DNA of 64,000 bases from Callorhinchus milii (lineage: Eukaryota): assembly GCF_018977255.1 (NCBI RefSeq), contig NW_024704743.1, positions 5,768,001-5,832,000 on the forward strand. The letters are read 5' to 3'. The notes beneath the pieces were generated by a model. It had not been told where the DNA came from, did not search any database, and saw only the letters and a program-made list of their open reading frames with translations. Positions within the stretch are counted from its first letter, which is position 1. Each line of letters starts with the position of its first letter. This document shows positions 3,921 to 64,000 of this stretch, one piece after another. Both the position numbers and the translations under genes were made by a program.

Positions 3921-5497
3921 ACCCAACATGCTGTCAATTTGTGTTAAGATCTCAGTGCAATCACCCCCATGATACAAAAATCATTTTCGCTATTTGCCAC
4001 TAAATTCTAGAGTATAATAATAATCTGTCTCACCTTCGGTAGTCAGGCCTTTTTGCCCCCACCTTCCGGAACTCCCTCCCTCATTTGCCTCATTCCTTCT
4101 CTCGTCTCCTTTAAGGTTCTTTTTCAAGACTTTTCTCTTTGACCACGCCTTCAGTTATTTTCCCACCCCTTTGGCCCCCACCCCTCCCGAATCCAACCCC
4201 CAACTCAGGTGCAAACCCTTGACTGTCCAGCGCTTTGGGACATCCTCCTGACATGAAGGACGCTATATAAACTCAATTTGTTGTTGTTGTATGTTGTTAA
4301 AACATCGCAAAGTGCTTCACGGCAATTATGGTTAAGCGTAATGACTGTACTTTTAGGCAAACATGACAGTCGATTTGCTCACAGCAAGTTCCCTCAAGCA
4401 GCCAGTAAGTGTGTGATCAATTCTCTGGAGGATTATTGGATATGGTGTTATGGCCACATTCAATTAAGCGAGACAATGTGAAGGAATAAAAAGCTCAGCA
4501 AGCCCTTCACTGCTCTTCAGCCTGGGAGAAATGAGCTACCTGTAGTTTAACTCAGGTTTTTTTTATCTCCATGCTGTTGTATTCTTTGTCTCCCGAAGGC
4601 ATTTCATTTCACAAAGGATTTAATTTATCTTATTTATGCTCTTAGCTACCCTAACTTCGATGACGACAAACAACAACAACTTGCCTTTTATATGGGGCGG
4701 TGTCTCGGAGCGCTACAACCTTTAGTCACCTGGGTATTTGCACATCAAGATCCCTCTGCTCATCTATTCCATTCAAAATCTTACCGTTTCAATTTTAATT
4801 TTATTTCCTCATTCTTCCTATCAAGATGTACTACTTCACATGTTTTGGCTTTGAACAGCATCTGCCATCAAGCTGGCCATCTGCGAACTTATGTGTTTTG
4901 ATGTACTCCTGCAGTTTTGCACAATTTTTATTCAAACTGCAGGTGAGAGTGTGTAAGTGCGCAGATCCCCTTTAAGCAGGTGTGTTTTTCTTATTGAAGC
5001 TTAATATAAATTTCCACTTGTTGGGTTTGGAAAGAGAAAATTGTGTAGCTGTTGTGGTCACATCCTTGTAACGGCATAGGCTGTGCATTCCATGTGTTTA
5101 GCAAGATCCTCAGACTCGCTTATAAAAGTGAAACAGAACAAAAAAAAATTGTGCAGTGATTTTCTTGCATCCGATGAAAATATTGCAGTGGTTCCTCCTC
5201 TTAAACAATCAACATGGAGCCTTGTGTTGGAATCTGAATAGTAAACACTGTGTGTCCTTGCTGTCCTTGTTGTATATTCAGCCAGACACAGGTCCAGAGT
5301 TACCTGCAATAAAGATCTTGTGTTGAGCATCCTCTGCCTTTTCTTTGCCTTGAAGTGCGAATTCTACATTCGAGGTTAGCGAATCGATCCCAAACAGCAA
5401 GATGTGGAGTCTATCAACTGCAGGAGGAAAAAACATTGGGCCCAATTTAGAGCTGGTACACCTACACCAAGGCCTAACCCTAGTGCAATTTCACATT

Positions 5498-6780
5498 AAC
5501 AACAACAACAACATTACATTTGTATAAAGCCTTTCATGTCGGGAGGACGTCCGAAGACGCTGGACTATCGGTGCTTCTGACCCGAGCTGGGGGTCGGGAT
5601 TGGGGCAGGTGGAGGGCAGGAGGGGCCTGGAAGGAGGGTGACCGAAAGCACGGTCAAAGAGGAGGGTCTTCTGAAGGGTCTTGAAGGAGGCCAGGGAGGG
5701 GGCAAGCAGAGGGACTGGACTGGAGTTCCATAGGGTGTTTGGAGAGTGGCTGAAGGCCCGCCTGCCAATGGTGAGGCGGGTGAGGTGGAGCACGTGAAGC
5801 AGGCGATAGCCTGCTGAGTGGAGGGAGCGGACAGATTGGTAGGGGTTTAGGAGGTCACAGAGGTAGAAGGGAGCAAGGCCATGGAGGGCTTTGAAAGGGA
5901 GGTCCAGGATCTTGAAATGTAACCTCTGTGTAATGGGAAGCCAGTGGAGTCGGGCGAGGATGGGGGTAATGGGGTCGTGGAGCTTGGTGCAGGAGAGGTC
6001 CCGGGCTGCAGAGTTCTGGATGATCTGCAGCCTTTGGGGGGAGGAGTTGGGAAGGCCGACAAGTAGGGAGTTTGCGTAATTGAGCCTGGATTATGAATAT
6101 GTGTATGAGGGTCTCGGCAGCCTGCAGTATGAGACAGTGGCAGAACCAGGCGATGCTTTGGAGGTGGAGGAAGGCAGAGCGGGTCATGGCACAGATGTGG
6201 GGTAGAAAAGACAGTTGAGGGTCAAACAAGACACTAAGGTTCCGGACTGGCTTAGCGAGGTGGAGTGTGCAACCAGGGATGGTGATGCTGTCAGCGTCTG
6301 AGGTGTGGAGACGCTGACGGGAGCCAATCAGGAGGGCCTCAGTCTTGTTGATGCTCAGCTGTAGAAAGTTAGCTCTCATCCAGGACTTGAAGGGCGAAAC
6401 CTTGGGCAAGTTTCCTTACTCCACACGCCTAATAATAATCCCTCCAAAAACAAAAAAGAATAATAAATTGGTCATTTTCAATCCACGACTGTCTGTGGGA
6501 CATTGCTGTGCGCAATTGGCTGCCGCGTTCGCCCACAAATACACAGTCAATTCACTTTACAGTATATTCTGTGAAGCGCTTTGGGACGTCTAGAAGACTT
6601 GAAAAGCGTTATATCAAATGCAAGGATTATGATTATTATTATTATTTTTATTGATGTCTGTCAGGAGAGCAATGGTCCTAGAGTCAAGGGTGGAGGCAGA
6701 GAGATAAGAGTTGTGTATCATCCACATATGTGTGGAAGTTGACCCCATGTCTGCAGATGATGTCACCAAGAAGGAGCAAG
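5498..6780 (-). mobile_element. L2-clade LINE 3' fragment interrupted by a SINE (6391-6650, + strand)
   Basis: Translations include WMRANFLQLSINKTEALLIG, VRNLSVLFDPQLSF and GRRAFSHSPNTLWNS, with a (TTG)n tail. L2 sequence resumes at 6651 after the SINE, with TTGA on both sides. Confidence 0.9.
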
Positions 6781-16589: not shown

Positions 16590-18335
16590 AATAACAACAA
16601 CCACAACAACAACACATGACATTTGTATAGCGCCTTTCATGTCAGGAGGACGACCCAAGGTGGTGGACAGTTAGGGATCCGCACCCGAGCTGGTGGTTGG
16701 GATCAGGAAGGGTGGAGGGAGGGGAGAGTAGGGGTAGGAGGGTGACCGAATGCACGGTCAAAGAAGAGGATCTTGAGACGGGCGTTGAAGGAGACAAGGG
16801 AGGGGGCGAGGTGGACGGAGTGTTGGATGGTGTTCCAGAAGGTAGGGGCAGAGAGGATGAAGGTCCGCTCGCCAATGGTGCGGCAGGCAAGGCGGGTCAC
16901 ATGAAGGTCAGAGCCTGCTGAGTGGAGAGAGCGGACAGATTGGTAGGGTTAGGAGGTCACAGAAGTAGGGAGGAAGAAGGCCGTAGAAGGCTTTGAAGGT
17001 AAGGATCAGGAACTTAACTGTATCCTCTGAGCGTTGGGGAGCCAGTGGAGTCGGGTGAGGATGTGGGTGATAGGATCATGGAGCCTGGTGCGGGAGAGGA
17101 CATTTTGCATTGCATGGATGTGATGAATGCGTGGATAAGGGTCTCTGTGGCCTGCAGTGAGAGACAGTGGCGGAGCCGGGCAATGTTGAGGAGGTGGGGA
17201 AAGGAGGAGCGGGTCATGGCACGGATGTGGGGGATGAAGGACAGTTGAGGATCGAACAGGACGCTGAGGTTCTGTATTGACTCCGTGAGGTGTAGAGTGC
17301 ATCCATGAAGAGTGATGCTGTCAGCGCCCGAGGTATGGAGGAGCTGACAGGAGCCAAGCAGGAGGGTCTCGGTCTTGTTGACGTTCAACTGGAGAAAGTT
17401 ACTCTCATCCAGGACTTGATGTCCGACAGCCAGTCTGTGAGGACAGCAGTGGTCCTGGAGTTGAGGGTGGAGGCAGAAAGATAGAGTTGGGTGTTATCTG
17501 CATACATGTGGAAGTTGATACCATGTCTACAGATGATGTTACCAATTGGAAGCATGTAGATGTTGAAAAGGAGGGGATCAAGGACAGAGCCCTGAGGGAT
17601 GCCACACATGATGGTGTGGGGGCTGGAGGAGAAGCCATGACCCGAGACAAAGTGGAGACGGTGGGAGAGGTAGGATTTGAACCAGGAAAGAGCAGATCTG
17701 TGAAGATTGAGCTGAGAGGAGAGGTGGTTGAGGAGGATAGAATGGTCTACAGTCTTGAAGGTAGCAAAGAGGTCGAGGAGGACAAGGAGGCAGAGAGAGC
17801 CCTGATTGCAGGTGGGCAGAATATCGTTAGTGATTTTCACCAGGTCTGCGAGCAGCACGGAAACCCGATTGGAAGGGTTCATAAAGGGAATGGCAGGAGA
17901 GTAAAGAGTGAAGCTGGGACATGACGATTTGTTCCAGGGCTTTGGAGAGGAAAGGGAGGTTGGAGATGAAGAGTAATGATGGGTCCAGGGAAGGGTTTTT
18001 CAGGATGGGGGTGATGAAAGTTGTTGTTTAAGGGGATGAGAACAGCGCCAGTGGATAAAGAGAGGATGATGATGTCGGTTAAAAGAAGAGCCAGGAGGTG
18101 GAGCTGGGAGGTTAGGAGAGGGGTGGGGATGGGGTCGAGGGAGCAGGTGGTGGGCTTGATTTTTCAAATGATGGAGGTGAGGGAAGAGGGGGAGACAGAG
18201 TCGAAGGTGTGTAAGGAGGGGTGGGTCAGGGCCGTGGTGTGAGGGGAAGGTGGGGAGGTGGTAGCGGTAGACGGGGGAGAAGCTAGCTGAGCAAATCCCC
18301 TCGATTTTGGACTCAAGGAAATCCAACACTACCAC
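16590..18335 (-). mobile_element. L2 LINE, 5'-truncated, with reverse transcriptase (frameshifted)
   Basis: RT motifs LLVLLDLFATFKTVDH, GIPQGSVLDPLLF and HMYADNTQLY, then LHWLP and a (TTG)n tail. Confidence 0.92.
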
Positions 18336-19399
18336 ATGCAGAGGAGACAAATGATACCCTTGTCCAGCTAACATCGCAAGTGGTGAAACTGCTGACTGCT
18401 TCTCACTGGCTAACAAAACATCGTCTGTCAGACCTGCCTAATCCTACTGTTTCATGGACCTCTGCAGTTGACTGCACCAACGGCAGCTGCTAAAGTGGTT
18501 GGAAACTGATTTCACAAAGTTAACCTACTGTGAACAAATGTTGAGCTAATGAAGTCTGACTCCGCTCTTTATGTGCACAGTGTTGCATCCTTCCTCAGAC
18601 ACTATTTAATCGCCGCAGATGTGTTTTATCCACAAATATTGCATGATCTAATGCTGTTGGGAACGGATATTTGAAGTGTTGGGATGCTGACAGGCTTTAA
18701 AATATTGTCCTCTGGACACGACGGGTATTTTTAGCCTGAAAGTCACTATATTTCTCAATAGAATCTTTACTTTGGAAACCTAAACTCACAGTGGAGGTCA
18801 CCCCCAATGTTGAGAGAAATGGGACTGAAAAAGATCAACTAAGAAGCGACGGATAGGTGACAACAAGTATAGGTTTTAAAATTTAGAAAATTTGTTTTAC
18901 TAAAATAAAATAAGAATAATTTGATATAGCGCCTTTCACAGAGGGAGGACGTCTCAAAACGCTTCACAGGATAGACTGTAAAGCGTGATGACTCTATTTT
19001 GTAGGTGAAACGGATAGGAGAGAATCGATAAAACTAAAAACGGTTGCAGTTAAAATCAGCAACTTTATATGTTTGAAGTAACCTTCTGCCATCATTACTG
19101 TACGTCAAATTCTAATTAGCTTTTATTGCCAGCTTCCGATTTAAGTCAACGTGTTTAATTACAGATTTTTTAAACTATAACTGAATTTTTTATATAAGTT
19201 GAACTTTGCAATTTTATTAATGTGAGGTGCCACACCATTTGGTAGCACTCTCACCTCTGGGTCAGAAGATTGCTGGTTCAAGTCCCGAGTCAGGAGTTTA
19301 AGATCATAGCCTAAGCTGAAGTCCACGCAGTGCATTGTCAGCGCCGTTTATTTTTGGATGAGATGTTAAACCAAGGGTCTCATCTGCCTTCTTTTAAGT

Positions 19400-20680
19400 G
19401 GACTCTCAACTCCCCCTCCTCTGCCCACGGCTGGCAGACACAATAAATCAGTTCCTCCCCTCAGGCTACTCTCGATCCCTTCGACCTCACTCACTATCAT
19501 CCCATTTCAAACCTGCCCTTCCTGGCCAAAGCCCTGGAGCGCGTTGTTACAAATTCTGCATACTCCACTCCCTACTCGAACCCCTCCAGTCTGGTTTTCG
19601 CCTGGCCCACAGCGCAGAGACAGGGCTCATCAAAGTAACAAATGCCATCCTCTCTCTCTGTGACCAGGGCTCCCTTCTACCTGCTCATCCTCCTGGATCT
19701 GTCCGCCACGTTCGACTCAGTCGACCACACCATCCTCCTTCACCACCTCTCCTCCCTTATCCACCTTGGTGGGACCGCATTCGCATGGTTCAAGTGCTAC
19801 TTGACTAACCACCAGCATTTCATCTCGGCCAATGGTTATTCCTCCCGGCACCGCCTGGTCACCTGCGGGGTACCCCAAGGCTCAATCCTTGGCCCCCTTC
19901 TTTTTCTTATCTACATTCTCCCTCTCAGCGATGTCATCCACAGTCATGGGTTCAACCTCCATGCGGATGACACTCAAATCTACTTCTCCTCCAGCTGTGA
20001 CCTCCCAGTCCACTGATGTCCTGTGAGCTTGTTTGACAGACATTAAAGCCTGAATGAGCACAAATTTCCTGCAGTTGAATGTCGGCAAGAAGGAAGCCAT
20101 ACTCTGACTCCCATCAACGTCTTATCTCCTGCGGGTCTGAACTCCTCAACCTCTCTGGGCTCTCCCTCAGACTCTCCAAAACTCTGCACAACTTAGACAT
20201 CAGGTTCAATCCCCAGCTTTCCTTTCTACTACACATCCGTTCCCTACCAAGACCCCATTTGTCCACCTCCTCTATATGCCCACCTCCGTCCTTACGTCAC
20301 AGCCACAGCAGCCGAAACCCTCATCTACATCTTTGTCACTTCCCAGCTGGACTTTTCTAATGTCCTTCTCGTTGGTCTCCCCAGTTACACCATAATGGCT
20401 CTGCCTCCTATTTGCCCCTCGTGCCCTCCGTTCCACAGTCGGTGGACGTGCCTTCAGCCACTACGCCTCAAAACTCTGGAACTCTCTCCCTCAATCCCTC
20501 CATCTTGCCCCCTCCTTCCCCACCTTCAAATCTCACTTAAAGACCTTCCTTTTTGATCTTGCTTACGGTCACCTCCCCCCTCCCTCTCCCCCTGGTTCAT
20601 TGTCAATCTCCGCCGCTGTGAAGCGCTCCAGGACGCTACCCCATGTGAAGGGCGCTAAATAAATGCAACTTGTTGTTGTT
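19400..20680 (+). mobile_element. L2 LINE RT fragment, second subfamily
   Basis: QSGFRLAHSAET, LLDLSATFDSVDH, GVPQGSILGPLLF and HADDTQIY. Its tail (GCGCTCCAGGACGCTACCCCATGTGAAGGGCGC plus (TTG)n) differs from the other L2 group. Confidence 0.9.
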
Positions 20681-25750: not shown

Positions 25751-26039
25751 TGTAATTGTTGTGATTGAGATCGAAGTACCCAAAAGGACTGTTCCTTGTT
25801 CTTCCTAATAACTTCTAAAATTCATGTGACAACAACCATCAGTTAGTTCCTCTTGCGAATCTTCGCTGAAACAATTCAATTTAAAACACAAAATCCTGGA
25901 AATGCTGCAGGTTAGAAGAATTACATCTGAATCCCTGTCTTTCTCTCTCATGTGTGGAGTGACATGCTGCTGTCATTTACGTTTCAAATTTCGCAATTGC
26001 TAACATAGCTTCCCCACTAATTTCTCTTTTAGGACATTA

Positions 26040-26530
26040 GAGGGTTGGGACAAGGGAGGGTGGTGGGAGGGTAGGAGGGTGGCCGAAAGCACGGTCAAAG
26101 AGGAGGGTCTTGAGAAGTGCCTTGAAGGAGGCAAGGGAGGGAACGAGGTGGAGGGAATGTGAGGTGGAGTTCCAGAAAGTGGGGGCAGAGAGGCTGAAGC
26201 CTTGACCGCCAATGGCGAGGTGGGCCGAGCTCGGGGAAGTGGAGCAGACCAGAGCCTGCCGAGCAGGGGGCTTAGCAGGTCACAGAGAAGGGGCAAGGCT
26301 GTGGAGGTGAGCACGAGGATTTTGAACTCTATCCTTTGAAGGATGGGGAGCCAGTGTAGCCGGGCGAAGGTGGGGGTGATGGGGTCACAGTGCTTGGTGC
26401 AGGAGAGGACACGAGCTGCAGAGTTCTGGATGATCTGCAGCTTGTGGAGGGAAGAGTTAGGAAGGCCGACAAGCAGGGAGTTGGCGTAGTCGAGCCTGGA
26501 TGTGATGAACACATGGATAAAGGTTTCACC
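26040..26530 (-). mobile_element. L2 LINE 3' fragment
   Basis: [17 protein letters not shown]...[12 protein letters not shown]...[15 protein letters not shown]. Confidence 0.9.
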
Positions 26531-28833
26531 CAACAACCACACAGACCTTTCACCAGCGATTACAAAACAGTAATTAGAAGCAGGTCCCTGGCTGATGTTC
26601 CCTGAGACACTGAGACCAGCTGTAGAGCTTCCACCCCTGCTCACCCTGGGATCAGCTAGTTCAGCATAGACCAAAGATTGAAGCTGGAAACTTTTCGGTC
26701 TTTACAGCTCAACACCACAACCCAATATCCTTTATGCACTGATATATTGAGGGGCGTGGAGGGTGAAGAGTGGAGGGGGAGGTTAAGGTCACAGAAACAA
26801 CAACTTGCATTCACATAGCACCGTCATGATTTGTAGGTGAGTGTGAAGATCTTGAAATCAATCCGGTCTGCAGCAGAGAAGTCTGGCAAAGACTGGGGAG
26901 ATGGGGGTGCAGTGTCTGAAATAACTTATATTTTACGCATCACAGCCACAGTTTGCCCACAGCAAAAAAAAACATGTTTCTACCGATGGAAGTAATGCTT
27001 ACAAATAAGATTTGGCACCTTGTCACATCGTTCAGATGTCTCAAAGAATATACTGTAAAATGAATCAACGGTGTATTTTGTGGGCAAAACGCAGCGGCCA
27101 ATTGCACACAGCAGTGTCCCACAAAGAGTTGTGGATTGAGTGACCAAACTATCATTTATTTATTTTTGATGGGATTATTAACCGCGGAAAGCAATCCGCC
27201 AATCGACTAGGAACCCGGGATCCTACTTCCTGCTAGATAAACAGAGGCCTGTGGAGTAAGCAAACTTGCCTGAGGTTTTCTTACTTAAAATAATTTTGAG
27301 TCACTACCGTGATAAATATAATAGGGACAGGGAGAATAGTTATATAGGGGATACCAGCAGTGCCCACTTTTGTAATGTTTTTTACACACCCAGTGGGTGA
27401 CGGCTTGTCAGAACTTGCTGTTGGCCGTCAATGTTTCCGTTTCAAAAGTGGTGCTGTGATGATGATGAAGCACGACAAACTCCAACCCAGGAGAGGAAAA
27501 GGTCAATGGAATTAGATGATTACACCTTCAAACAGCCAGCACAGGAGAGAATGACTTTCTGCGCTGTAAAGTTCTACGGTTCTATGATTCTAACAGTAAA
27601 GTGAACGACTACTCCACAGAAGGGCTGGAGTTGTGTTCTGACGGACCAGGACTCCCAATTATACCAACAACATGCATTTTCCACATACAGTACAATGTAG
27701 GATAAAGTCCCCAAATGCCTTACAGGAACAGTGTGGACATACAGGGATCTGGGAATCTGGGAAGGTGTCACGGTCGAGGAGGTAGCTTTTTTAATGAAGT
27801 TTTTTAAAAAAAGGAGAAGGGACGTGATGTAGAGTGACCCAGACTTAGAGTTCCACCTTTGTTACACAGTGCCTAAGCTCATCAACTGCTTATAACTGTG
27901 ACATGTACTATCTGTTATTGGCACCACTGAAATGTTAGATTCTTATAATGCAATTCAAATTTACCTTAAACAGACCTTTGATGGCGGGAGGACATCCCAA
28001 GTCACAGAACAATCTTGGTTTTTCACTGGAGCGAGGGGTAGGAGCTGAAGGATGGCGAGAAGGGGAAAGATGAGAGAAAGTGCCGTCAAAGAGGTAGCTC
28101 TTGACATGGACCTTAAAAAGGGTGAGGGAGGGAGCTTCTTAGCACAATTCAGTGAAAAACACACTGATGATTGCACCTTTGGAAATTCTGTCGATATCTC
28201 CATTGATTTTCCTTTATCCCGTTACTTTTCCCCTCCCCCCACCCAAAAATAACCAAACCTGAGGCCAACTATGGCAACTATTGACCTAAAGCCCTGCCAA
28301 TCGTGGGATTAATATTGAGTTACACCACTACTTGGCGTTGGCTCATTCAATTGCCAGGAGGTTCAGTGGCTGCCAGAGCAAATGCGAGCTCAACTATTTT
28401 GACAGAAGTGGGGGGAAGAGAAATGTAAATAGACACACACGAAGACATCAGAAAAATGAATTTTTCACCCCATGTTCTATTCTCTGCCACGTAGTTACAA
28501 TGCAAGTTCACCTCTAGCTCTCAGCGTTTTTGTGGTAAGTTTGAGTCCTCTTATTTATACACCTATTTCCAGAACTCTGGGTCTCCAAGTTATTCTGAAA
28601 AAAAACAACCACTTGATGATTCCGTTCTTGGTAAAAGCCAGATTATTTGAGATATCCCAGCTATGTACGACATGCCTTTCTTTGACCAGTGGAGAGCTTC
28701 AGTTGGCTGCACTAAGACTGGCCGGAATCTGAAGCCAGGGTCCATCGTGAATCCAGTCGTCCCTTATCAGCTCAAAGCACCAATCGCCCTATACATTCGT
28801 GGCGATATAGAGGAACTTTGTCAAATGAATGAT

Positions 28834-30344
28834 TCAGGACGAAACCCACAAAAAGGAAAGGTTTGTCCCGCGCTCATGGGCGATCTGGTTTATCCGCCCT
28901 CGGACACAATCCAGGGAGATCGAGGCCATCGTGCCGTTCTGGACGGCAAAGGAAGTGCGGAGAGAAACACTGGTCCATTGGCTGCCCTCGGGCATCTGCC
29001 CCCCGATCTGCTGTGCCAGTGTGGCCGGCTGGGCCTGGCGGCTCTGCAGTCTGTACAGAGTGACTCTGACGATGCTGCAGGAATGAATGAGCTTCAGGTT
29101 CAAAGCCACACTGGCCACTCCCTCATCGCGGAACAGGACGCGCTCCCGCGCAAACTGCCCGTCCGTCACCAGCCGCACCTGACTCGCTTCTGTGGCCGGC
29201 AAAACCTCCTGAAACCGGAGCGATCTGTTCCTCACGGCCCCCATCGGCAACCCAGCCTTGCAGACCCGCAGGGAGAGGGCGGTGGAAACAGCCGAGGGAA
29301 TCCAGAGGAGGCTGAACACGCTGATCCCAGGCACGACCCCAAAATAGCGCACGCTGCACTGCGCAGGGGAGAGGATCTCGAAGCTGATCATGTCCCCGGT
29401 GTTAACCTGGGCAACTCCGGAGGCAGATATTGATGTGTCTCTGTAATTCACGCCAGTTTTATAAACCTGAACCAGCTCTCGGTTCGTTCCGTTCCTGTTA
29501 ATGTAGGAGATCAAAGTGAAGCCCTCTCCAATGCAGGTGTGACCCATGGCATAGAGCGCTTGGTGGTACACGAACCTCACCACTCCCTTCTCCGTGAAGC
29601 GAATGGCTCTCCCCCCGTGGCACAGGCTGATCATGTAGGGGTCAGAGATGGCGATCACCTGGAAGACGGGTCTGTAGTTGCTCTGGTAGTGCACCGAGGT
29701 GGTCGTGTGAGCGCTCATGGCCACAGCGCCCGTGTCGTGCGAGAGCCAGAAGAAGCTGAAGGGAGCGCGCAGGTGGTAGACACTCAGGTCGTGGCTTTGA
29801 TTGCAGTGTTGGTTGGGGCTCTTCAACACCAGTTGGATTACGTGGCCGGGCTCCACTTCGGCAGAGCCGCTCACGCTCGTGCTCTGGTAGTACTTGCCGT
29901 CCGGCTGCTCGATGCGAGCCCCGCTGAGGTCCCGCCCGCCCTCGCTGTCGTTGAGCTGGAGCGTCAGCTGAAGGAAGTTCCTGCAGTGGTGCTTGACCGC
30001 AAAGTTGTAGTCGACCCAGATCAGGCCGTGCTGCCCGAGCACCAACCGTCCGTCCTGATTGGTGGCGAGGTGCGACTTAGGCTGCCCTTCGATGGCCAGG
30101 CTCAGGCCCAGGTCGACCTCCCCACCGGCTACTTCGGTGCTCGCCCACCACGATCCCGAGAGCCGGGCCTCAGGCGATCGGCCACACACCGCGTCGCCGT
30201 GCGCGGAGCATCGGAAAGCCACAGCCCCCTCGGGGCACAGCGAGCAGGCCTGGCACTCCTGCATTTCGCTGTTGAAGAAGTAGCCGTGGCCGCAAAAGCC
30301 CGAGATCACGTCCCTCTCCACGATCCCCAGGCACCGGAATCCAC
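28834..30344 (-). CDS. Unnamed secreted multidomain protein, final coding exon: end of EGF, TNFR-type Cys-rich domain 2, three tandem C1q/TNF-like domains
   Basis: Acceptor gttgacag|GT (phase 1), 1511 nt open to TGA, GC/CpG-rich. Contains CGHGY...CQACSLCPEG...C....D..C. Three ~150-aa repeats end FSFFWL, FSLLWI and LSFLWV. Confidence 0.9.
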
Positions 30345-30429
30345 CTGTCAACACAGCGGAGCACACAGGCCGGTTATCAGGGCCGAGCACAAGGATCTCC
30401 ACGGTTATAAGAACACCAGGAATACCCAC

Positions 30430-30496
30430 CTGGAGTGTTGAGGCACTTGACCTGATCACCACAAAGCTCTGCTGACTCCAGACACTCGTCCTTGTC
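30430..30496 (-). CDS. Unnamed secreted protein, 67-nt micro-exon (N-terminal part of a calcium-binding EGF-like module)
   Basis: aaatttag|GAC...CCAG|gtgggt encodes DKDECLESAELCGDQVKCLNTP(G). Phase 0 in and phase 1 out match both neighbours. It lies in a different frame from the ORF-track ORF. Confidence 0.88.
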
Positions 30497-30973
30497 CTAA
30501 ATTTCAAATCATACAATTAATAAGACGGGCACGAAGTGTTAAGCAACACGTTATTAAAGTATTAAAAGTACTGCGTTGTAACAGCTAGGCTCACACATCC
30601 CGGATACCCGGAGTGTGTGTATAATCCAGTAGTGTTTAAGTGCTCCGAGACGCTACCCTGCGTGGAGAACACTATATAAGTGCAAGGTGTTGTTGTAGTG
30701 TGTCTATGCATGTACGTTTATACAATACTAATACGCGTATATGTTATATTTGTGTGTATATGTGGGTGTGGTGCGTATACGCATGCGTGAATGTGTATAT
30801 ATGCGTACGTGTATTATGTGTGTGTATGTGTGTGCATGCGTTTGAATGTGTGTGAAGTGTAAGCGTATTGCGTGTACATATGTATGCGTGTACGTGTTAT
30901 TCTGTATCGACAGAGAAGTCAGCAAGCAGCTTAGCGCTTTCAGACAGCAGTGCCAGGCTGTGGAGCGGTTCAC

Positions 30974-31512
30974 CTGACATATGCGGTCAGCGGTTTGCGA
31001 GCACTCCGAGAGCAGATGAAAGCCCGCCGGACACAGGGTGCACTTCTCACACTGGGGCGGCATCTTGTGCAGATCACAGAACTCATCGGCGCTGCACAGT
31101 GCGCACTCCGTCAGCCTCCCGCTGACGTCCAGCACTTCGGCATCAACGTCCACGGTTTGCACCGCATACTCCTTCCGCAGCTGAGTTTGAATGTGGCCCT
31201 GCAGTCTGTGCAGGTGAGACTCAAACTGATCCTGGATTTCGGCTTGCAGGCTGGAAAGGGACGTTAGCTTAATGCTTTCAGAGAGCATGTGGTACTGGAC
31301 TTTTACGAGCTCCATCTGCTCGAACATTTTCCTCTGTTGGCCGAGTATTTCTCTTTGTTGGTTGATCAGAGCCGTCTGCTGTTCAGTCAGACTGTGCTGT
31401 AAGTCGCTGATCATTTTCTGCTGGCTCTTCAGCAGCTCCACGAACTTCTCCTGTCCCTTTGACAGCTGGAGCTGCAGAATTAGTGCGTCTTCAGACGGGA
31501 CTTCGTTGTCTC
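30974..31512 (-). CDS. Unnamed secreted protein, coding exon 2: coiled coil and TNFR-type Cys-rich domain 1
   Basis: cgtttcag|GA (phase 1) to CAG|gtgaac (phase 0), 539 nt. Gln/Leu heptads are followed by CSADEFC...CEKCTLCPAGFHLLSECSQTADRICQ. Confidence 0.9.
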
Positions 31513-35390: not shown

Positions 35391-36304
35391 TGTGTGTGTG
35401 TGTGTGCTCCCAAAACTATTTAACCCCTTAAGGGCCGAAGATGTCTCTTGCAGGGATTGTTCATTCCCTGGCAGTTTCCCAGCTCTCCGACTTGCTTACT
35501 CCCTTCCCTCCCATCCCCGCCAATTTACAACCCTGACTCCGCTAGACTGGCCCTGGCCTCCTGCTTGTCCTTTGTGCCCTCCGTTCCACCATCGGCAGCC
35601 ACAATTTCAGCCATTACACCACCAAACTCTGGAACGCTCTCCCTCAAACCCTCCGCCTTGCCCCCTTCCTTCCCTATCTTCAGGTTGTGCCTGAGTCCTT
35701 CCTCTTCGACCGTGCTTACAGTCACCGACCCCCGGTTCAGCATCTTGCTCAGCCACTGTCAAGCTCTCTGAGACATTACCCTACATGAGGGGCATTATAT
35801 GAATACAAGTTGTTGTTGTTATTTCACACACAATCCCAACCCCCACCTCACCCAACAAAAAAGGTGGTTTGAAAGAGCAGGAGAAAGTGCAATCACTTTT
35901 ATTTTTTTAAAAAGTGTGCATTTCTGGTTCGAAGAAACAAGGAAAAAGTTGCTCGAGAAAAGGTTAACTTGTCTTACGAAAAAGTCAGCCAAATTCTGGT
36001 GTCACCTCTTTTGTTTGAACACAGCGATGTAACATCATCCCCGTTAATAACCCCTCAGTCCATTGAATCATTTTAATCGGATACAAATTCCTGTTGGAGG
36101 CTTGTGTTTTGATGTTAGTTTCACAGGGAAAGAAATTTCCTCAAGGCACATCACTGGCTCAGCCCTGAGGAGACCCCACTTATCTCCCCTCCAGGAAGGA
36201 GGGTCACTAGGTTATTAGACATCTGACAAGGGCAGGCAAGCATGGGAAGCATTTTTGTCCCTCCTATCGACATGAAACAACATATAAATGTAACTTCTAT
36301 TGTA

Positions 36305-36960
36305 ATACTCTTTGGCTCTCGTCAACGTCTAAAATCTCACGGCTTTCACCTCCTCCACCTACCCAACCTCCACCTAAAACTCTCCGAACCCGTACGCAAC
36401 CCAGGCGTCAGGTTCGACCCCCAATTATTCTTCCTCCCCCACATCCGGTACCTCACCAGCACCGCTTTCTACCACCTCCGACGCATCGCCCGTCTCCGCC
36501 AATACCTCTGCCAAAAAGCCGCTGAAACCCTGGTCCATCCCTTTGTCACCTCTCGGCTGGACTACTCTAATGCCCTCCTCACCGGTCTCCCATACACTAC
36601 CATCCATAAAATCCAGATTATTCAAAACTCTGCCGCCTGCATTCTCACCCGCACAAAACTCCGCTCCCTGATCACCCCACTGACCTCTTCTCTCCTCAAA
36701 ACAGCACCCGTTGCCTTCGTTCCTCCAGGTCTGGCCTCTTCCTCCAAGTCCTCCTCTCCATTCTCAGTGGCCGTGCCTTCGGCCACGATGCCTCGAGGCT
36801 CTGGACTCCCTTCCTCACTCCCTTCGCCTCGCCCCCTCTCTTCCTATTTTCAGGTCTCGGCTGAAGACCTTTCTTTCCGACCGTGCCTTTGGTCACCTTC
36901 CTCCCCCTCCCCCTGGCTCATCCCCGGAATCCATTACTGTGAAGCACTCTGAATGCTTCC
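36305..36960 (+). mobile_element. L2 LINE 3' fragment
   Basis: HLRRIARLRQYL...FVTSRLDYSNALLTGLP...IQNSAACIL. Confidence 0.9.
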
Positions 36961-53636: not shown

Positions 53637-56017
53637 ACATAAGAACATAAGAAATAGGAGCAGGAGTAGGCCATTCGGCCCCTCGAGCCTGCCCCGCCAT
53701 TTAATAAGATCGTGGCTAATCTTCTAACCTAATTCCATTTACCTGCCCTATCCCCATATCCCTTAATCCCTTTCGTTTTTAAAAATCTATTGATCTCAGT
53801 CGTGAATATGTTCAATGACTGAGCATCCACAGCCTTCTGGGGTAGAGAATTCCATAAATTCACTACCCTCTGAGTGAAGAAATGTTTTCTCAACTCAGTT
53901 CTAAAAGGCTGACCTATAATCCTGAGACTATAACCCCTAGTTTTACATTCTCCAACCAAGAGAAACAGTCTCACTATCTACCCTGTCAAGACCCTTAAAA
54001 ATCTTATAGGTTTCCATAAGATCATCTCTAATTCTTCTATATTCTAGAGAATATAGTCCTAGTCTACTCAACTTCTCCTCGTAGGTCAACCCCTCATCCC
54101 AGGGACCAACCTAGTGAACCTTTCTTAGATAAGGAGACCAAAACTGCACACAATATTCCAGGTGCGGTCTCACCAAGGTCCTATACAATTGCAGTAAGAC
54201 TTCCCTACTCTTGTACTCTGACCCCTTTGCAATAAACATTAACATGCTATTAGCCTTCCTAATTGCTGCTGTACCTGCATACTAACTTTATGTGATTGGT
54301 GTACAAGGACACCTAAATCCCTCTGAATATTAACACTATCTCGTCTCTCCCCCTCTAAAAAATGATCTGCTTGTCTATTTTTTCTACCTAGGTGAATAAC
54401 TTCACACTTCCCCACATTATACTCCATCTGCCACCTCCTTGCCCACTCAGTTAACCTGTCTATATCCCTTTGCATCCTCCTTGTGTCCTCCTCACAGCTT
54501 ACTTTCCCTCCTACCTTTGTATCATCTGCGAATTGAGATACACGAAGCTCTATTTCCTCATCTAATTAATTGATGTAGACTAAACAGTTGCGGCCCAAGC
54601 ACTGATCCTTACGGCACTCCACTAGTCACAACCTGCCAGTCTGAGAAGGCCCCGTTTATCCCCACTCTCTGTTTTCTGCCTGTTAACCACTCTGCGATCC
54701 AACCTAATATATTACCCTTAATTCCATGCGCCCTAATCCTATGTAACAATCTTTTCATGTGGCACTTTATCGAATACCTTCTGAAAACCTAAGTACACTA
54801 TATCCATTGGTTCCTCCCTATCTAACCTGCTAGTTACATCTTCAAAAAATTCTTAAAAGATTTGTTAAACACGATTTCCCTTTCATAAAGCCGCGTTCAC
54901 TCTGCCTAATCATATTAATAATAATCCTTGCATTTATGACTGTCTAAGTGCCCCACAATGGCATCCCTAATTATAGACTCTAGAATTTTCCTTATCACCG
55001 ATGTCAGGCTAATTGGTCTATAGCTCCCCATTTTTTTTCCCCCACCCTTCTTAAATAGCGGTGTTATGTTTGCGATCATCCAATCAACAGGAACCATTCC
55101 AGAATCCAGGGAATTCTGGAAAATCAAAAACAATGCATCCACTATCTCTGCAGCCACCTCTTTTAAAACCCTAGAATGCAGGCCATCAAGTCCAGGGGAT
55201 TTATTAGTTTTTAGTCCCATCAATTTCTCTTTACTGATATTAATTTCTTTAAGTTCCGCACTAACATTAGTCTCTTGGTTCCCCACTATTTCTGGTAAGT
55301 TTTTAGTATCTTCCAACGCGAAGACAGAAGCAAAGTATTTGTTATTGACTCTGCTATTTCTTTATTCCCCATTATAATTTCTCCTGTCTCTGCCTGTAAG
55401 GGACCCACATTTACTTTTGTTAATCTCGTCCTCTTTATATACTTGTAAAAGCTCTTACAATCTGTCTTTATTGCTAGTTTATTCTCATATTCCATTTTCT
55501 CCTTCTTAATCAGTTTCTTGGTTATCCTTTGCTGATCTCTAAAGCCCTCCCAATCCTCAGGTTTACAACTCTTTTTGGCAATATTATAGGCCTCTTCTTT
55601 TAATTTTATACTTTCCTTAACTTCTCTAGTTAGCCATGGTTGAACCACTTTTCCTGTGGAATTTTTATTTCTCAAGGGAATACGCGTTCATTGGGAATTA
55701 TCTAATATATCTTTGAACGTTTGCCATTGCTTGGCTACCGTCATATCTTTTAAACTATTTTCCCAGTTTATTTTAACCAAATCGTCCCTCATACCTGCAA
55801 AGTTGGCTTTATTTAAGTTTAAGACCCGTGTTTCAAACTTAACTACATCACTCTCTCAAACTTGATATTAAATTCCATCATATTATGGTCATTCTGCCCT
55901 AGAGGAGCTTTAACGTCAAGATTACTGATTAGCCTTGCTTTGTTACACAATACAAAGTCGAGCATAGCGTGTTCCCTGTTTGGTTCCTCAGCATACTGTT
56001 TTAGAAAACTACCTCTA
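53637..56017 (-). mobile_element. CR1 LINE, about 2.4 kb, 5'-truncated, degenerate ORF2 (end of endonuclease, RT, C-terminus, 3'UTR)
   Basis: KSPGLDGLHSRVLKE, YRPISLTSV, WQMEYNVGKCEVIHLG and RKHFFTQRVVNLWNSLP, with a TTCTTATG-type tail. Abuts another CR1 fragment at 53390-53636. Confidence 0.93.
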
Positions 56018-58212: not shown

Positions 58213-59892
58213 CTCTATAATAATAATAATAATAATCTTTGCATTTGATATAGCGCCTTATCATGTCTTCAAGACTTCTCAAAGTGTTTCACAGAATATA
58301 CTGTAAAGTGAATTGAAAGTGAATTGGCGAAACATGGCAGCCAATTACGCACAGAGGTGTCCCACAAATAGTCATGGATTGAGTGACCAATGTATTATTT
58401 CTTATTATCAGGCATGTGGAGTAAGGAAACTTCCTTTCCTTTCTCAAATTTCGCCCTCCCGGGAATCGAACATTCTCACTTGCGAGCTGAGTGCCCTAAC
58501 TGCTGAGCTACAGTTCTCCATGGTTGAGTTACTCAATAAAGAGGAATATTCTCTTCCTGTTCTTATGTTCTTAATCAACAAATAAATAGTGGTCAGAAGG
58601 AATTATTACCACCAGAAAAGCGATTCGCCAATCGACTAACAACGGTGCCCTGTGTCTCCATTTAGTTAGAAGTAAACAAAACTTTCACAGCAGGGATGAG
58701 ATATGTAAAAGTATCTTTTGCATTTTTTTCCGTTACTGTACCATTTATCATTCTTCACTAAATAAATAGGAGGCATTACTTTTATCGTGTGTCCCTCGTA
58801 ATAATCCTTACATATGGTATCCTGCGTTTCATGTCAGGTAGGCATCTTAACACATCATTTTATTGTAAAAATAATGATTGCTGCAGCACATTTATGCACA
58901 GCAATATCCCACAAAAATGTGAATGGCCAATTTTATTTGGGGAATTGTTGTCCAAGGCACAGAGAAGAACTCCCTTCCCTTTTCGAATAGTGTCATGGGA
59001 TCTTTAATGTCCATTCAAACAGGCGTACAGGACTTCAGTTTGATGTCATTTTTTGGTCAGCTGGGTATCTGACACATGCGGAAATCCATCACCATGCTTA
59101 AGAGTATCCGAACCAAACAGAGTTCCATGCATCCCACCTATACCTGGAAATTCCTGGATGAAATGTGTTGGAATTGGAATGGAATGCATATTCTCTCCCT
59201 GGAAGGACACATCCTGCTTTACCTAATCCCAGATAGTATTAAACACAGGTTGGCAAGAGCCAAGACTTGGGGACCCCAGTGTTTGCATTGGGATACTGAA
59301 TGAGTCTAAAATCACATAGCTTGCCATTGAGAATGCTGCCTGGCAAGCTTTCCTGCTGTTTGTCCAGTTAGGACAACTCTCGGGCTTTGGCTTGCAGGGT
59401 TAATGGGAGCTGAGTGGGAAGACATCAAACTGAAGTCCTGTACGCCTGGCACCAGTTACTGGTCTACCTTTCCAAGTCCTGCCAATGAGCCAGCCTGACC
59501 GGGCCCTGGAATACTGCGAACACACCTACCAGGAACTGGACTAATGAGATCACCACAGAAGGCTGGCTCAGTTCTGATCTTCCATTGCCAAACATGTCAC
59601 CTTGGAGCCAGCTCAGCTCCAAGAAGACCCTGCTTACCCCACAAAGAGAATAGTCCGTATAGCATACCCCAACCCAATATGAAAAATGAAGAGTCCGCAG
59701 AAATTGCAAGCGAAGGGGATTAGACCTGATAGCAACAGTAGGCAAACTAGCACAAGTGCAATAACCAACTTCAGTGTTGTAAAAGTTCTATGCTTTTATG
59801 ATATCAGTTATGTCGCAAAGTTTCACATTTTTAGCTCAAAGTTGTGGCTGATGTTGGTAAGTAGGAATAATACTTATTGGATAAGTAATACC

Positions 59893-60572
59893 TCCGGAAT
59901 ATCGCCAGACTACGGCACTACCTCACCCCTCACGCTGCTGAAACTCTGGTCCACACCTTTATCACCTCAAGGCTGGACTATGGGAACTCTCTCCTCGCCG
60001 GCCTTCCCGGCACCTCCCTCCACACTGCAGGTCATTCAGAACTCTGCAGCTCGTGTACTGTCCCGCACCAGGCTTCGCGACCACATCACTCCCACCCTCG
60101 CTCGCCTCCACTGGCTCCCCATCCCCCAGAGGATCGAATTCAAGATCCTCATCCTCACCTACAAGGCCATTCACGGCCTCGCTCCCTCCTACCTCTCTGA
60201 CCTACTATTCCCCTACCTACCTGCCCGTACCCTCCGTTCCTCTGGCTCCGGTCTGCTCCACATCCCCCGCCCCAACCGCCCTACCATCGGTGGCCGGGCC
60301 TTCAGCCTCTCAGCCCCTAGGCTCTGGAACTCCATCCCCCAGTGCCTACGCCTTGCCTCCTCCCTTTCCTCCTTCAAGGCCGGTCTCAAGACCTTTCTCT
60401 TTGACCGGCCTTCAGCTCCCCTCTCGACTCTCTACCCCCTCCTCGCTCCCTCCCTTCCCTCACCCTGACCATTTCCCCCCTGCTCGGGTTCTGACCCAAC
60501 TGTACAGCGCCTTGGGACATCCTCCCGACGTGAAAGGCGCTCTATAAATGGAATCTTGTTGTTGTTGTTGTA
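59893..60572 (+). mobile_element. L2 LINE 3' fragment, relatively young
   Basis: Long open stretch [12 protein letters not shown]...[15 protein letters not shown]...GGRAFSLSAPRLWNSIP...FKAGLKTFLF, with an intact stem-loop tail and (TTG)n. Confidence 0.93.
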
Positions 60573-61109: not shown

Positions 61110-61730
61110 TACAACCACCACAAAATTTGTAAAGCGCCTTTCACATCAGGAAACGTCCCAAGGCGCTGAACAGTCAGAGATCAGGACCCGAGGGTGGGCG
61201 GCAGGGTTGGGATGAGGGAGGGCAAAAGGAGTAGGAGGGGGCAAGGCTGTGGAGGGCCTTGAAAGTGAGGACGAGGATTTCGAATTGCATCTGAGGGATG
61301 GGGAGCCAGTGGAGTCAGGTGAGGGTGGGGGTGATGGGGTCACGGAACCTGGTGCGAGAGAGAACACGAGCTGCAGAGTTCTGGATGATCTGCAACTTGT
61401 GGAGGGAAGAGTTGGCGAGGCCGACAAGGAGGGAGTTTCCGTAGTCGAGCCTTGAGGTGACGAATGCGTGTATGAGGGTTTCTGCGGCCTGAGGGGTGAG
61501 GCAGTGGCGGAGTCGGGCGATGTTGCGGAGTTGGGGGAAGGCAGAGCGGGTCATGGCACGGATACGGGGGAGAAAGGACAGTTGAGGGTCGAACAAGACG
61601 CCCAAGTTCCTAACTGGTTTGGTGAGGTGGAGTGTGTAACTGTGTATGCTGATGCTGCCAGTGCCTGAGGTGCTGGCGTGACCCAATTTGGAAGGCCAGG
61701 TCTTGCTGACATTTAGCTGCAGAAAGCTGA
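61110..61730 (-). mobile_element. L2 LINE 3' fragment with internal deletion
   Basis: VRNLGVLFDPQLSF...[20 protein letters not shown]. Confidence 0.9.
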
Positions 61731-64000
61731 ATTCTTTCTACATTAGTTACATATTGTGGAACAGCTGATGTGAAGATCTAGAAGTAAGCATCGAAGTGAG
61801 CGACAGCCTGTGAGTGTTTATCTTTGGCACAACTGAAGTGGGTCATTTGGTTTAGCTGACCTTCAAGGAAGGATTCTTTTCTTGACTGTAGATTTTGCAG
61901 CTCCTAGTAGTCGAGCACTGTGTGTTTATACTGCACCACATGGCCGCAAAAAATTTACTATAAATTGCAGTCGAGAAACAATGCACTTCCAAATTGCACT
62001 CAAGTCACACACCAAACATTTGGTAGTTTCAAGAGGTTTGAATTTGCATCTGCTCCAGTATAAAGGCCAGACTGGGAACCAATGCTGGCTCCACTTACCC
62101 AATAATCCCTGAAGAATCCAATCAGTCCAACAGATGGCCTGAGGAAATAAGGAGCATTTTTGGTGTTATTTTGATTTTTTTGTTGATTTTTTTGATATTT
62201 TTCTCCTTACCACATGCGGCTTCCACGTTGGTTTAACGTCTCATCTGATAGCACCTCCAACAATGCAATGCACCCCCAGCACTGCATTGGAATGTCATCT
62301 TAGACTATTCGAGTTCACATCCCAATGTGGGCCTTGAACCCACAACCTTCTGACACAGAGGTGAGAGTGTTACCAACTGAGCCAGGCTGGCGCATTCACT
62401 ATAAAGTGAAGTGTATGTATTTTGTAGGCAAACTGGCAGCCAATTTGTGCACAGGCTGCCCATAAACCACCTTGAAATCAATCACCAATTTTATTTTGCG
62501 GATTGTTGGTCGGGATACCAGGAGAATCTCCTTTCTCACTTTGAATAGTGCCATTTGAATAGACAAACAGACGGTTGAACATCTCACTCAAAAGCACCAT
62601 CAACAATGCAGAGCACTCCCAGCACCACATTGGAGTATGAACCTAGAATCTAGATTATAAGAATTCAAAGTACTCAAAGTGTGGCTTAATCTCACAATCT
62701 CGAACTCCGAGGCAAGTGTGCTACCAATTGAATCAGGCTGACACCTGTGCAGCTGCAACATCCTATAGCAATAAATTGCCAATTGCCTTCGGAAGAGGTG
62801 TAGAAATAATTGGCAGAGTTAGAAAGCTTGCTTTTTTTTGAACAGCATCTCCTGTAAAGTAGCACAGAACAATCACAAACTGCACTAAGCATGGAGAGCC
62901 ACAGAAGGCTAGATGGTTTGAGAGAGAGGAAACATCTTGCCTTCTGTTAAACCGATACTACTTTTGGTGAAACACATTTCTACCCAGCACCACAATTCAC
63001 AATTTTCCGGCTGTGATATTTCCTTTTCAAAAGATGTTTTTTTAAAAAGAATTTAATGTTTCCTCTGCAGCTGCAAACATTTGTAACTGTGAAACTGGTC
63101 AGCTGAAATACCACACTGTGATATGCTGGCTATTGCTTGCAGACCTGAGCTCCATCATCAGGTTTTAGCAACAACAATCATAGAATGGTTGATAGACTTT
63201 TTTCAAAAAGCATTCTCCCGCTTTCTTTCCCTATATATCATTTTCAAAGGTAACCTCTCATGAAGTGTAGTGACTGTATATTTGTAGGCGAATAACTTTT
63301 CACACAGCATGCCTCACACACAGCTGTGAAGTGAAGTACAATTTTATCTGGAGGACTGTAGGCCAGGACACTGACAGAAATTCTTATCTCTTTTCGCAGT
63401 GACGGTATCTTTAATGTCCACTTGAACAGACAGAGAGTAACTCAATGGGCAATGCAGTGCTCCTGGTGTCAGCCTAGACCACAAGCTTTTTAAAGGAGAT
63501 GGATGTTGTTATCTAATAGGAGTGAGTGGAACACTTTAAGTTCATCAGGGTGTGGCTATCTGGTGGTGAAGAGTGCACAACTTCCTTGTTAGGCTCCAGT
63601 GTCAGCAAAAAACACACACACAGGTTTACTATTATCAGTCAGATTCAGAATAAAGCTCTACCCTGCAAAACTTAGAATCATACAATCCTACAGCACAGGA
63701 GACGATTCGGCCCATGGTGCCTGTGCCGGCTCTTTGAAAGAGCTATCCAACTAGTCCCATTCCCCACTCATTTCCCATAGCCTTGCAATTTTTTTCTTTT
63801 TCAAGTAAATATCCAATTATTGAATCTGCTTCCGGATTTCAAACCAACACTCACTGTTGGAGGAATATGATATTTGCATTTCCAAAACCACACATGTTTT
63901 ATGACTAAGTGAGGGAGCCATTTTAACTTTGAGTTATGGCTAATTGTGGATCAGTATATTCTCATAGCAAGTGCTATTCTCGGCCTAACTATTCTTCTAT

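Follow-up and report, generated by a model that had tools for sequence, protein, structure and literature searches.

The window analyzed here is a stretch of 64,000 nucleotides from Callorhinchus milii (NCBI RefSeq assembly GCF_018977255.1, contig NW_024704743.1, positions 5,768,001 to 5,832,000), and it contains a minus-strand gene that is, by sequence, the orthologue of vertebrate 'nell3' (si:ch211-37e10.2). The gene has four coding exons that together give a frame of 910 residues; its three introns are of the GT-AG kind, and their phases are 1, 0 and 1. The predicted protein combines two tumor necrosis factor receptor (TNFR)-type cysteine-rich domains (CRDs) and an intervening EGF module with a C-terminal head of three repeats, each predicted to adopt the TNF/C1q jelly-roll fold. 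The gene represents a real, conserved and apparently undescribed chordate family of likely secreted proteins with predicted C1q/TNF-type heads. The features of the gene are as follows:

34709-34094, minus strand: exon 1 (coding), with ATG, GT donor and phase 1; holds the likely signal peptide, an 11-cysteine low-complexity region and the LTCD motif
~34709-34638, minus strand: likely signal peptide, judged by eye
31512-30974, minus strand: exon 2, encoding the coiled coil and CRD1; open frame, with contig evidence from run X1
31450-31169, minus strand: predicted coiled coil, residues 227-320, from the heptad pattern in 120 orthologues
31105-30974 (C342-Q385), minus strand: CRD1, TNFR-type with eight cysteines (C342-C384), from Pfam TNFR_c6 and an orthologue model
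30496-30430, minus strand: exon 3, the N-terminal part of the calcium-binding-type EGF module
30496-30430 plus the start of exon 4, minus strand: EGF_CA-type module between the CRDs, D386-C412
30344-28834, minus strand: exon 4, with the rest of the EGF module, CRD2, the linker, the three head repeats and the stop codon
30344-30295, minus strand: fourth cysteine of the EGF module, followed by an insert of 12 residues; the module has no canonical C5-C6 loop of its own
30294-30184, minus strand: CRD2, TNFR-type with six cysteines (C425-C461), from Pfam TNFR_c6; its first hairpin overlaps the EGF match
30183-30160, minus strand: short linker between CRD2 and head strand A, ~8 residues long, from spacing counts
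30159-29740, minus strand: repeat 1 of the head, a predicted jelly-roll of the TNF/C1q type with sequon N539 in its DE loop
29724-29296, minus strand: repeat 2 of the head, a predicted jelly-roll of the TNF/C1q type with sequon N692 in its DE loop and a weak Pfam TNF match
29286-28834, minus strand: repeat 3 of the head, a predicted jelly-roll of the TNF/C1q type, and the stop codon

Gene structure and transcript evidence

The exon structure agrees with contigs of run X1, taken by guess to be RNA, in which intron 3 is skipped exactly. One loose end in this run is identical to the 3' end of exon 1 over 30 letters, and another to the 3' end of exon 2 over 10 letters, a weak match. Intron 3 is retained unspliced in one contig of run X2, and run X6 has no coverage of the gene. 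Each contig covers part of the transcript only, but the orthologues align over all three exon junctions. An earlier sequence-only reading of this DNA had placed the CRDs and the triple repeat in the same polypeptide, and this arrangement is supported by the 910-residue frame, the splice evidence of run X1 and the orthologue alignment. On the evidence of the open frame, the splice joints and the orthologues, an artefact or a pseudogene was rejected.

The CRD-EGF-CRD segment

The counts that follow come from 46 homologues scanned for domains, 120 vertebrate orthologues used for conservation values (those for the CRDs and the linker exclude cysteines), and 149 rows used for spacing and motif counts. 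The two CRDs lie exactly at the coordinates first assigned to them, 31105-30974 and 30294-30184, and the hidden Markov model (HMM) searches that had been proposed as a check support TNFR_c6. CRD1 scores 31.5 bits (E 2.4e-7), over the Pfam cut-off of 29.4, and CRD2 scores 27.2 bits (E 5.3e-6), about 2 bits under it; two TNFR_c6 stretches are present in 42 of the 46 homologues, and the orthologues reach 38-49 bits for both CRDs together. The six-cysteine pattern that had been read into both domains applies to CRD2, while CRD1 has eight cysteines. This cysteine pattern is not due to chance, because all 14 CRD cysteines are retained in 99-100% of the orthologues. In one homologue, P0135, only the first half of CRD2 is present, yet a member of the same cluster, P0193, contains both CRDs; P0135 is therefore treated as a gene-model artefact and is not taken to prove that CRD2 can be dispensed with.

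The structural evidence comes from a model of the stalk of the Scyliorhinus orthologue (P0003), which has a predicted local distance difference test (pLDDT) score of 86.8 and a predicted template-modeling (pTM) score of 0.76. CRD1 of this model superposes on CRDs of DR5, 4-1BB, DR6 and TNFR1 with root-mean-square deviations (rmsd) of 1.0-2.1 Å and Z scores of 4.8-5.9 (DR5, Z 5.9, rmsd 1.8 over 47 residues; DR6, Z 4.8, rmsd 1.0 over 37), and as modeled CRD1 is a TNFR CRD fold. CRD2 is barely covered by the list of structural matches, and its fold is assigned from the HMM and the model. The pLDDT of CRD2 is ~60-68 in a model of the exon-4 product, where half of the EGF module is missing, and ~90 in the stalk model; nothing is inferred from this. 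A Foldseek search with the stalk model gave zero matches at E values up to 0.001.

The CRDs had been described as lying directly N-terminal to the triple repeat. This is correct for CRD2 and incorrect for CRD1, because the EGF_CA module (D386-C412) intervenes; both this module and the glutamine-layered coiled coil upstream had been overlooked. The EGF_CA match is found in 44 of 46 homologues, and the D-x-D-E/N/aromatic calcium consensus is present, with D386, D388, E389 and F410 in 120/120 orthologues and N405 in 119/120. A canonical calcium-binding EGF domain has six cysteines with a C4-x-C5 spacing of 1. That spacing is absent here: the distance from C4 to the next cysteine is 12 in 123 of the 149 rows, 6 in 24 and 16 in one, and the next cysteine pair is that of CRD2. 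The likeliest reading is that the first hairpin of CRD2 supplies the last loop of the EGF module.

The resemblance to TNF receptors raises the question of whether this segment binds a ligand. According to one proposal, the protein is a soluble decoy receptor for TNF-family cytokines, comparable to DcR3, OPG and the poxvirus Crm proteins. It is likely secreted and oligomeric, it has TNFR-type CRDs, and DcR3, OPG and CrmE are among the weak matches. However, the contiguous tandem CRDs that form a ligand-binding surface are replaced by two CRDs with an EGF_CA module between them, and the stalk model does not superpose on whole TNFR ectodomains (template-modeling (TM) score ~0.3, rmsd 13-20 Å). 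Known TNF decoy receptors carry four CRDs in tandem. A decoy function is very improbable.

A different proposal gives the stalk a binding site of its own, for a non-TNF partner, so that the protein would bridge a stalk ligand and a head ligand. The CRDs of p75NTR bind neurotrophins, and p75NTR gives the best PDB sequence match of CRD2 (E 0.007), while a family profile matched DR6 among the PDB sequences (E 1.7e-6). In addition, the EGF module has its full calcium consensus and, among 12 distant rows, is better conserved than any other segment of the stalk or head (40% identity, with 25-27% for the CRDs and 30-35% for the head repeats). These matches are weak, however, and reflect cysteine spacing, and the calcium ligands alone predict high conservation of the EGF module. 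A bridging function is improbable.

The triple head

The triple repeat of TNF/C1q fold had also been recognized from the letters alone, and this has held up well. Profile-profile comparison detects the repeats, with E values of 5.4e-6 for repeats 1 and 3, 3.7e-5 for repeats 1 and 2, and 0.013 for repeats 2 and 3. The model of the exon-4 product (pLDDT 86.5, pTM 0.84) has ten main strands per repeat; the strand names used here were assigned by us from the DSSP order of the head model. In both PDB searches, the top four matches of the head model are engineered single-chain trimers, namely 4zch (APRIL-BAFF-BAFF; Z 38.1, rmsd 3.1, 399 residues aligned), 5hzf (C1q head; Z 32.8), 5kca (Cbln1; Z 31.8) and 4dou (adiponectin; Z 31.5), and the next row drops to Z 16.1. 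The single-domain matches are APRIL and CD40L (Z 16.1), EDA-A1 (16.0), and C1q and C1QL1 (14.4), so that each repeat of the predicted model, at Z 14-16, falls within the TNF/C1q fold superfamily. The linkers between the repeats are of constant length in 149/149 and 148/149 rows, and the five-residue linkers that were built into 4zch (PMC4712316) are comparable. The head is thus predicted to be a natural single-chain pseudo-trimer of the TNF/C1q type.

At the level of sequence families, the head belongs to neither TNF nor C1q. Pfam C1q (PF00386) has no match in the 46 homologues or in the three repeats of the window, and Pfam TNF (PF00229) stays under its cut-off of 23, with 12-14 bits for repeat 2 of the window (E 0.14, 12.6 bits) and for 2 of the 46 homologues. 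Of the 89 PDB sequences matched by the family profile, the best 60 include neither a TNF nor a C1q chain. In a comparison of language-model features the nearest neighbor is a cluster of 377-residue C1q proteins (0.92), which serves as a lead only.

A rival reading is that the head is a true TNF-type ligand, with three unlike grooves that bind TNFR members and a coiled coil that clusters the heads into a soluble, multimerized agonist. Members of the TNFSF are type II membrane proteins with one TNF domain that form non-covalent trimers, and their DE loops contribute to the groove that receives the receptor. The nell3 protein departs from this architecture, with three repeats in one chain, an N-terminal stretch that resembles a signal peptide and no type II transmembrane anchor. 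Its DE loops carry sequons or, in repeat 3, vary in length, and the Pfam TNF scores are far under the cut-off. On the other hand, APRIL, CD40L and EDA-A1 are the top single-domain matches (Z 16.0-16.1, rmsd 2.1-2.3), the weak Pfam matches (repeat 2 of the window and 2/46 homologues) are to TNF and none is to C1q, and repeats 2 and 3 have conserved AA' loops. The need of TNFR signaling for higher-order clustering, described in the accessible part of PMC8484739, would also suit a multimerized agonist. The two cysteines of each repeat pair the CD loop with the G strand/GH loop, whereas classical TNF ligands have a CD-EF disulfide (PMC8484739, same part). With this evidence on both sides, a TNF-type ligand is an unlikely identity for the head.

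The N-terminal region and the coiled coil

The protein is likely secreted, as judged from features of its sequence. No transmembrane-like segment was found: hydrophobicity over 19-residue windows does not rise above 1.76, and its peak falls in a predicted strand. A membrane receptor was rejected. No conserved furin-type site was seen (RxxR occurs in 8/120 orthologues, in region 126-145).

The chains are likely bundled by the N-terminal coiled coil. A hydrophobic residue recurs at every seventh position through eight heptads in 100% of the 120 orthologues, and the other core position is occupied by glutamine in five successive heptads (Q237-Q265) in 98-100%. These five glutamine layers may set the oligomer state or the register of the coiled coil. 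Just upstream, the LTCD motif (residues 196-226) is near-invariant, with a conservation of 0.95. The region between the likely signal peptide and this motif has no Pfam match in its cysteine-rich part, and residues 25-226 contain 9 or 11 cysteines in 111/120 orthologues. Short repeats of paired cysteines in this N-terminal region (34637-34125, minus strand) could form inter-chain disulfides.

Conservation of the head and proposed function

The best-conserved exposed loops of the head are the CD loops (0.93, 0.92 and 0.88 in repeats 1, 2 and 3) and the EF loops (0.88, 0.93 and 0.79), which lie at the end of the head opposite the stalk. The corresponding values are lower for CRD1 (0.71), the second half of CRD2 (0.62) and the linker between CRD2 and the head (0.52). 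The DE loops reach 0.64, 0.89 and 0.42, and the value of 0.89 reflects the sequon itself: an N-glycosylation sequon is present in the DE loop of repeat 1 in 105/120 orthologues and of repeat 2 in 120/120, and the DE loop of repeat 3 varies from 9 to 20 residues.

These patterns bear on the proposal that the protein is its own ligand, with a CRD docked on the head of the same chain, of a neighbor in the bundle or of another molecule, leading to auto-inhibition or a head-to-tail lattice. Receptor-type and ligand-type folds do occur together in every full-length member examined, and CRD1 superposes on the CRDs of DR5, 4-1BB and DR6 at 1-2 Å. The first hairpin of CRD2 is shaped like ligand-binding hairpins and is conserved at 0.78, and the bundle would bring the heads of other chains near. 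Against this, the CRDs diverge faster than the head, and the DE loops bear sequons. Single-CRD receptors for BAFF and APRIL (BCMA, TACI and BAFF-R) have an aromatic-DxL motif in their first hairpin, and this motif occurs in neither CRD in any of the 149 rows; in the available portion of PMC10046288 we found no mention of it.

The geometry also argues against docking of CRD2 on its own head. The C-terminus of CRD2 is tied to the end of the head that carries its termini by ~8 residues, which span less than 25 Å (scaled from 14 residues = 40 Å), and the distance from the last CRD2 cysteine to the strand-A tryptophan is 11 residues in 129/149 rows. The receptor orientation in solved TNF-type complexes is the reverse of that imposed by this tether. 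Furthermore, the EGF module splits the CRDs, whereas the binding surface of CD27 for CD70 consists of adjoining CRD2 and CRD3 (PMC8484739, accessible part). All told, self-liganding or self-assembly is improbable. In its most specific form, nell3 would be a natural fusion of ligand and receptor modules in which the CRDs bind a neighbor's head, with calcium-sensitive auto-inhibition or lattice formation, as an ancient chordate system lost in placentals; we regard this version, too, as improbable.

The reading that we favor, with slightly better than even confidence, is that nell3 is a secreted, multivalent recognition protein bundled by its coiled coil, in which the CRD-EGF-CRD segment is a stalk and not a receptor for the head. 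The three repeats of each chain would fold into one asymmetric trimer of the TNF/C1q type, carried on a disulfide-bonded and probably calcium-stiffened stalk. Because one chain would already make a full trimer-like head, the coiled coil should be unneeded for head assembly and would instead multiply the heads. The bundle of complete heads could then bind an outside partner (a cell-surface protein, a glycan or matrix) with high avidity. By analogy with recognition by the C1q family, contact would most likely be made through the conserved CD, EF and GH loops at the end opposite the stalk. The C1q-family layout, a secreted protein with a trimerizing stalk (collagen or a coiled coil) before the head, may have a counterpart in the coiled-coil heptads of nell3. 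The CRD-EGF-CRD segment is read as a stalk because its CRDs are split and less conserved, the CRD2 tether is short, the DE loops carry sequons and the aromatic-DxL motif is missing. One-chain triple heads also occur outside any TNF signaling context, in the oyster smultiC1q proteins and in viral models, and a TNFR-type CRD is found outside TNF biology in the moss receptor kinase CR4 (7a0k). Among the interpretations first offered for the co-occurrence of the two kinds of fold (self-liganding, head-to-tail polymerization, a soluble decoy or a purely structural association), the purely structural one fits best.

Several observations weigh against this recognition model. The conservation of the CD and EF loops may merely reflect packing around the pseudo-threefold axis. 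Single repeats are slightly closer to TNF ligands than to C1q (Z 16.1 versus 14.4), and the weak Pfam matches of the head are to TNF only. Conservation is also high in the AA' loops of the second and third repeats (0.78 and 0.83) and in the first hairpin of CRD2 (0.78), and both findings would suit a partner that binds from the side. The whole stalk is maintained from amphioxus to marsupials, which suggests a function beyond spacing. Binding between chains within the bundle would escape the tether argument. Finally, the DE sequons are few in the amphioxus and tunicate rows (0/7 for repeat 1 and 2/7 for repeat 2), and the glycan argument is therefore limited to vertebrates.

Phylogenetic range and previous accounts

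The exon-4 product is 53-71% identical to the best 120 of its 194 matches, which range over sharks, fishes, amphibians, reptiles, birds and a marsupial; Heterodontus 'nell3' is 71% identical. In a quick tree of 29 rows, the C. milii gene is sister to five elasmobranch orthologues with a support of 100, and the teleost paralogue si:ch211-252f13.5 is nested among teleosts. The best 120 of 303 matches to a marsupial query include the dunnart and the platypus and no placentals, and in the clusters found with this query, of which 12 members were inspected, there are seven species of marsupials and two of monotremes. The gene was likely lost in placentals, judging from these searches. Two unnamed records, P0142 and P0138, are fragments similar to head repeats 2-3 that have lost conserved residues and show apparent frame breaks; they could be decaying remnants from lineages where the gene was lost.

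Relatives of the gene occur in monotremes, lamprey, tunicate and amphioxus, with the same domain layout from amphioxus to marsupials. The head, searched exhaustively, matched 29 entries. The ten that were looked up comprise six clusters from amphioxus, one entry each from a tunicate and a lamprey, the paralogue of the pike and an unnamed fragment. A word-based search with an amphioxus head matched only itself. Amphioxus has at least six clusters of the family. In the paralogue of the P0129 cluster, a kringle domain precedes the coiled coil (E 8.9e-23). Isoforms X2 (P0127) and X1 (P0130) of Branchiostoma floridae LOC118405630 are divergent members that are identical over ~70 N-terminal residues, and they may reflect two tandem paralogous bodies that each receive the same first exon by splicing, or else an annotation merge.

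Source databases label nell3 uncharacterized or 'TNFR-Cys domain-containing', and the precomputed Pfam annotation of its homologues consists of TNFR_c6 only, sometimes with EGF_CA, leaving the triple head unannotated. A literature search, with supplements and subscription journals outside its scope, found no paper on nell3, si:ch211-37e10.2 or si:ch211-252f13.5, and no account that describes the family, its triple head, or a chain in which TNFR-type CRDs are joined to a TNF/C1q head. Nor did it find an account of a natural single-chain TNF pseudo-trimer or tandem TNF homology domains, or of a TNF/C1q architecture in amphioxus. The apparent placental loss would explain this neglect.

Other features of the window

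The window is repeat-rich eukaryotic DNA, with no second copy of the gene and no other obvious gene seen in it. Broken frames that, judged by eye, resemble fragments of LINE (long interspersed nuclear element) retroelements lie at 5494-6415, 17014-17999, 19398-20016, 26000-26701, 36227-36952, 54918-55687, 59683-60465 and 61318-61737. Intron 2 contains a high-copy short repeat (30636-30697) that has many contigs in all three runs examined.

Comparison with known systems

The name nell3 is misleading. NELL1 and NELL2 resemble nell3 in having a calcium-type EGF module and, as far as predicted for nell3, in secretion and a coiled coil, and NELL chains match the family profile at the EGF stretch only. 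The NELL family is characterized by a laminin-G/TSP-N domain, several VWC domains and six EGF modules. Membership in it was rejected, since the 46 homologues have no laminin-G or VWC match and there is one EGF module as against six.

TNFR ectodomains and decoys (DR5, DR6, 4-1BB, p75NTR, DcR3 and OPG) share the cysteine pattern of the CRDs and, for CRD1, the fold. Unlike these receptors, nell3 has CRDs split by an EGF module, is without a transmembrane, death or TRAF-binding part, and carries a ligand-type fold in the same chain. Interaction of nell3 with a receptor or with itself, if true, would be new TNF/C1q biology.

Triple heads of the C1q/BclA-like type are also predicted in viruses and phages. 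The BFVD models A0A1X9VNK7 and A0A6J5LW36 resemble the query with TM scores of 0.69 and 0.62; these predicted models have 9-12% identity to the nell3 head, and the viral and chordate triplications are probably independent. Across the giant-virus and phage entries A0A1X9VNK7, A0A6J5LW36, A0A3G5A5X5 and A0A3G4ZPZ6, the models match the whole triple head with TM scores of 0.47-0.69.

In oysters, 21 secreted multi-C1q genes are described in the accessible part of PMC6835236, mostly with three domains and with or without a coiled coil. The bivalve smultiC1q proteins match what is predicted for nell3 in being secreted, in having mostly three domains per chain and sometimes in having a coiled coil. 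They differ in that their C1q domains are recognized as such and the family is expanded, and no CRD/EGF stalk is described for them in that part of the source; the comparison is one of description and not of homology. The occurrence of one-chain triple heads in oysters and viruses limits the surprise of the present one, and what is new here is the chordate family and its receptor-type stalk.

The closest structural parallels are the engineered trimers 4zch, 5hzf/5hkj, 5kca and 4dou, which likewise have three jelly-rolls in one chain, trimer packing and short H-to-A linkers. Unlike them, the nell3 head is natural, with three divergent repeats, 11-14% identity and no Pfam TNF or C1q match at the cut-off, and it is joined to a CRD-EGF-CRD stalk and a coiled coil. 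A covalent trimer of three unlike repeats would present three different grooves, and the coiled coil would add multivalency. The gene thus appears to be the natural counterpart of the engineered single-chain TNF/C1q trimers.

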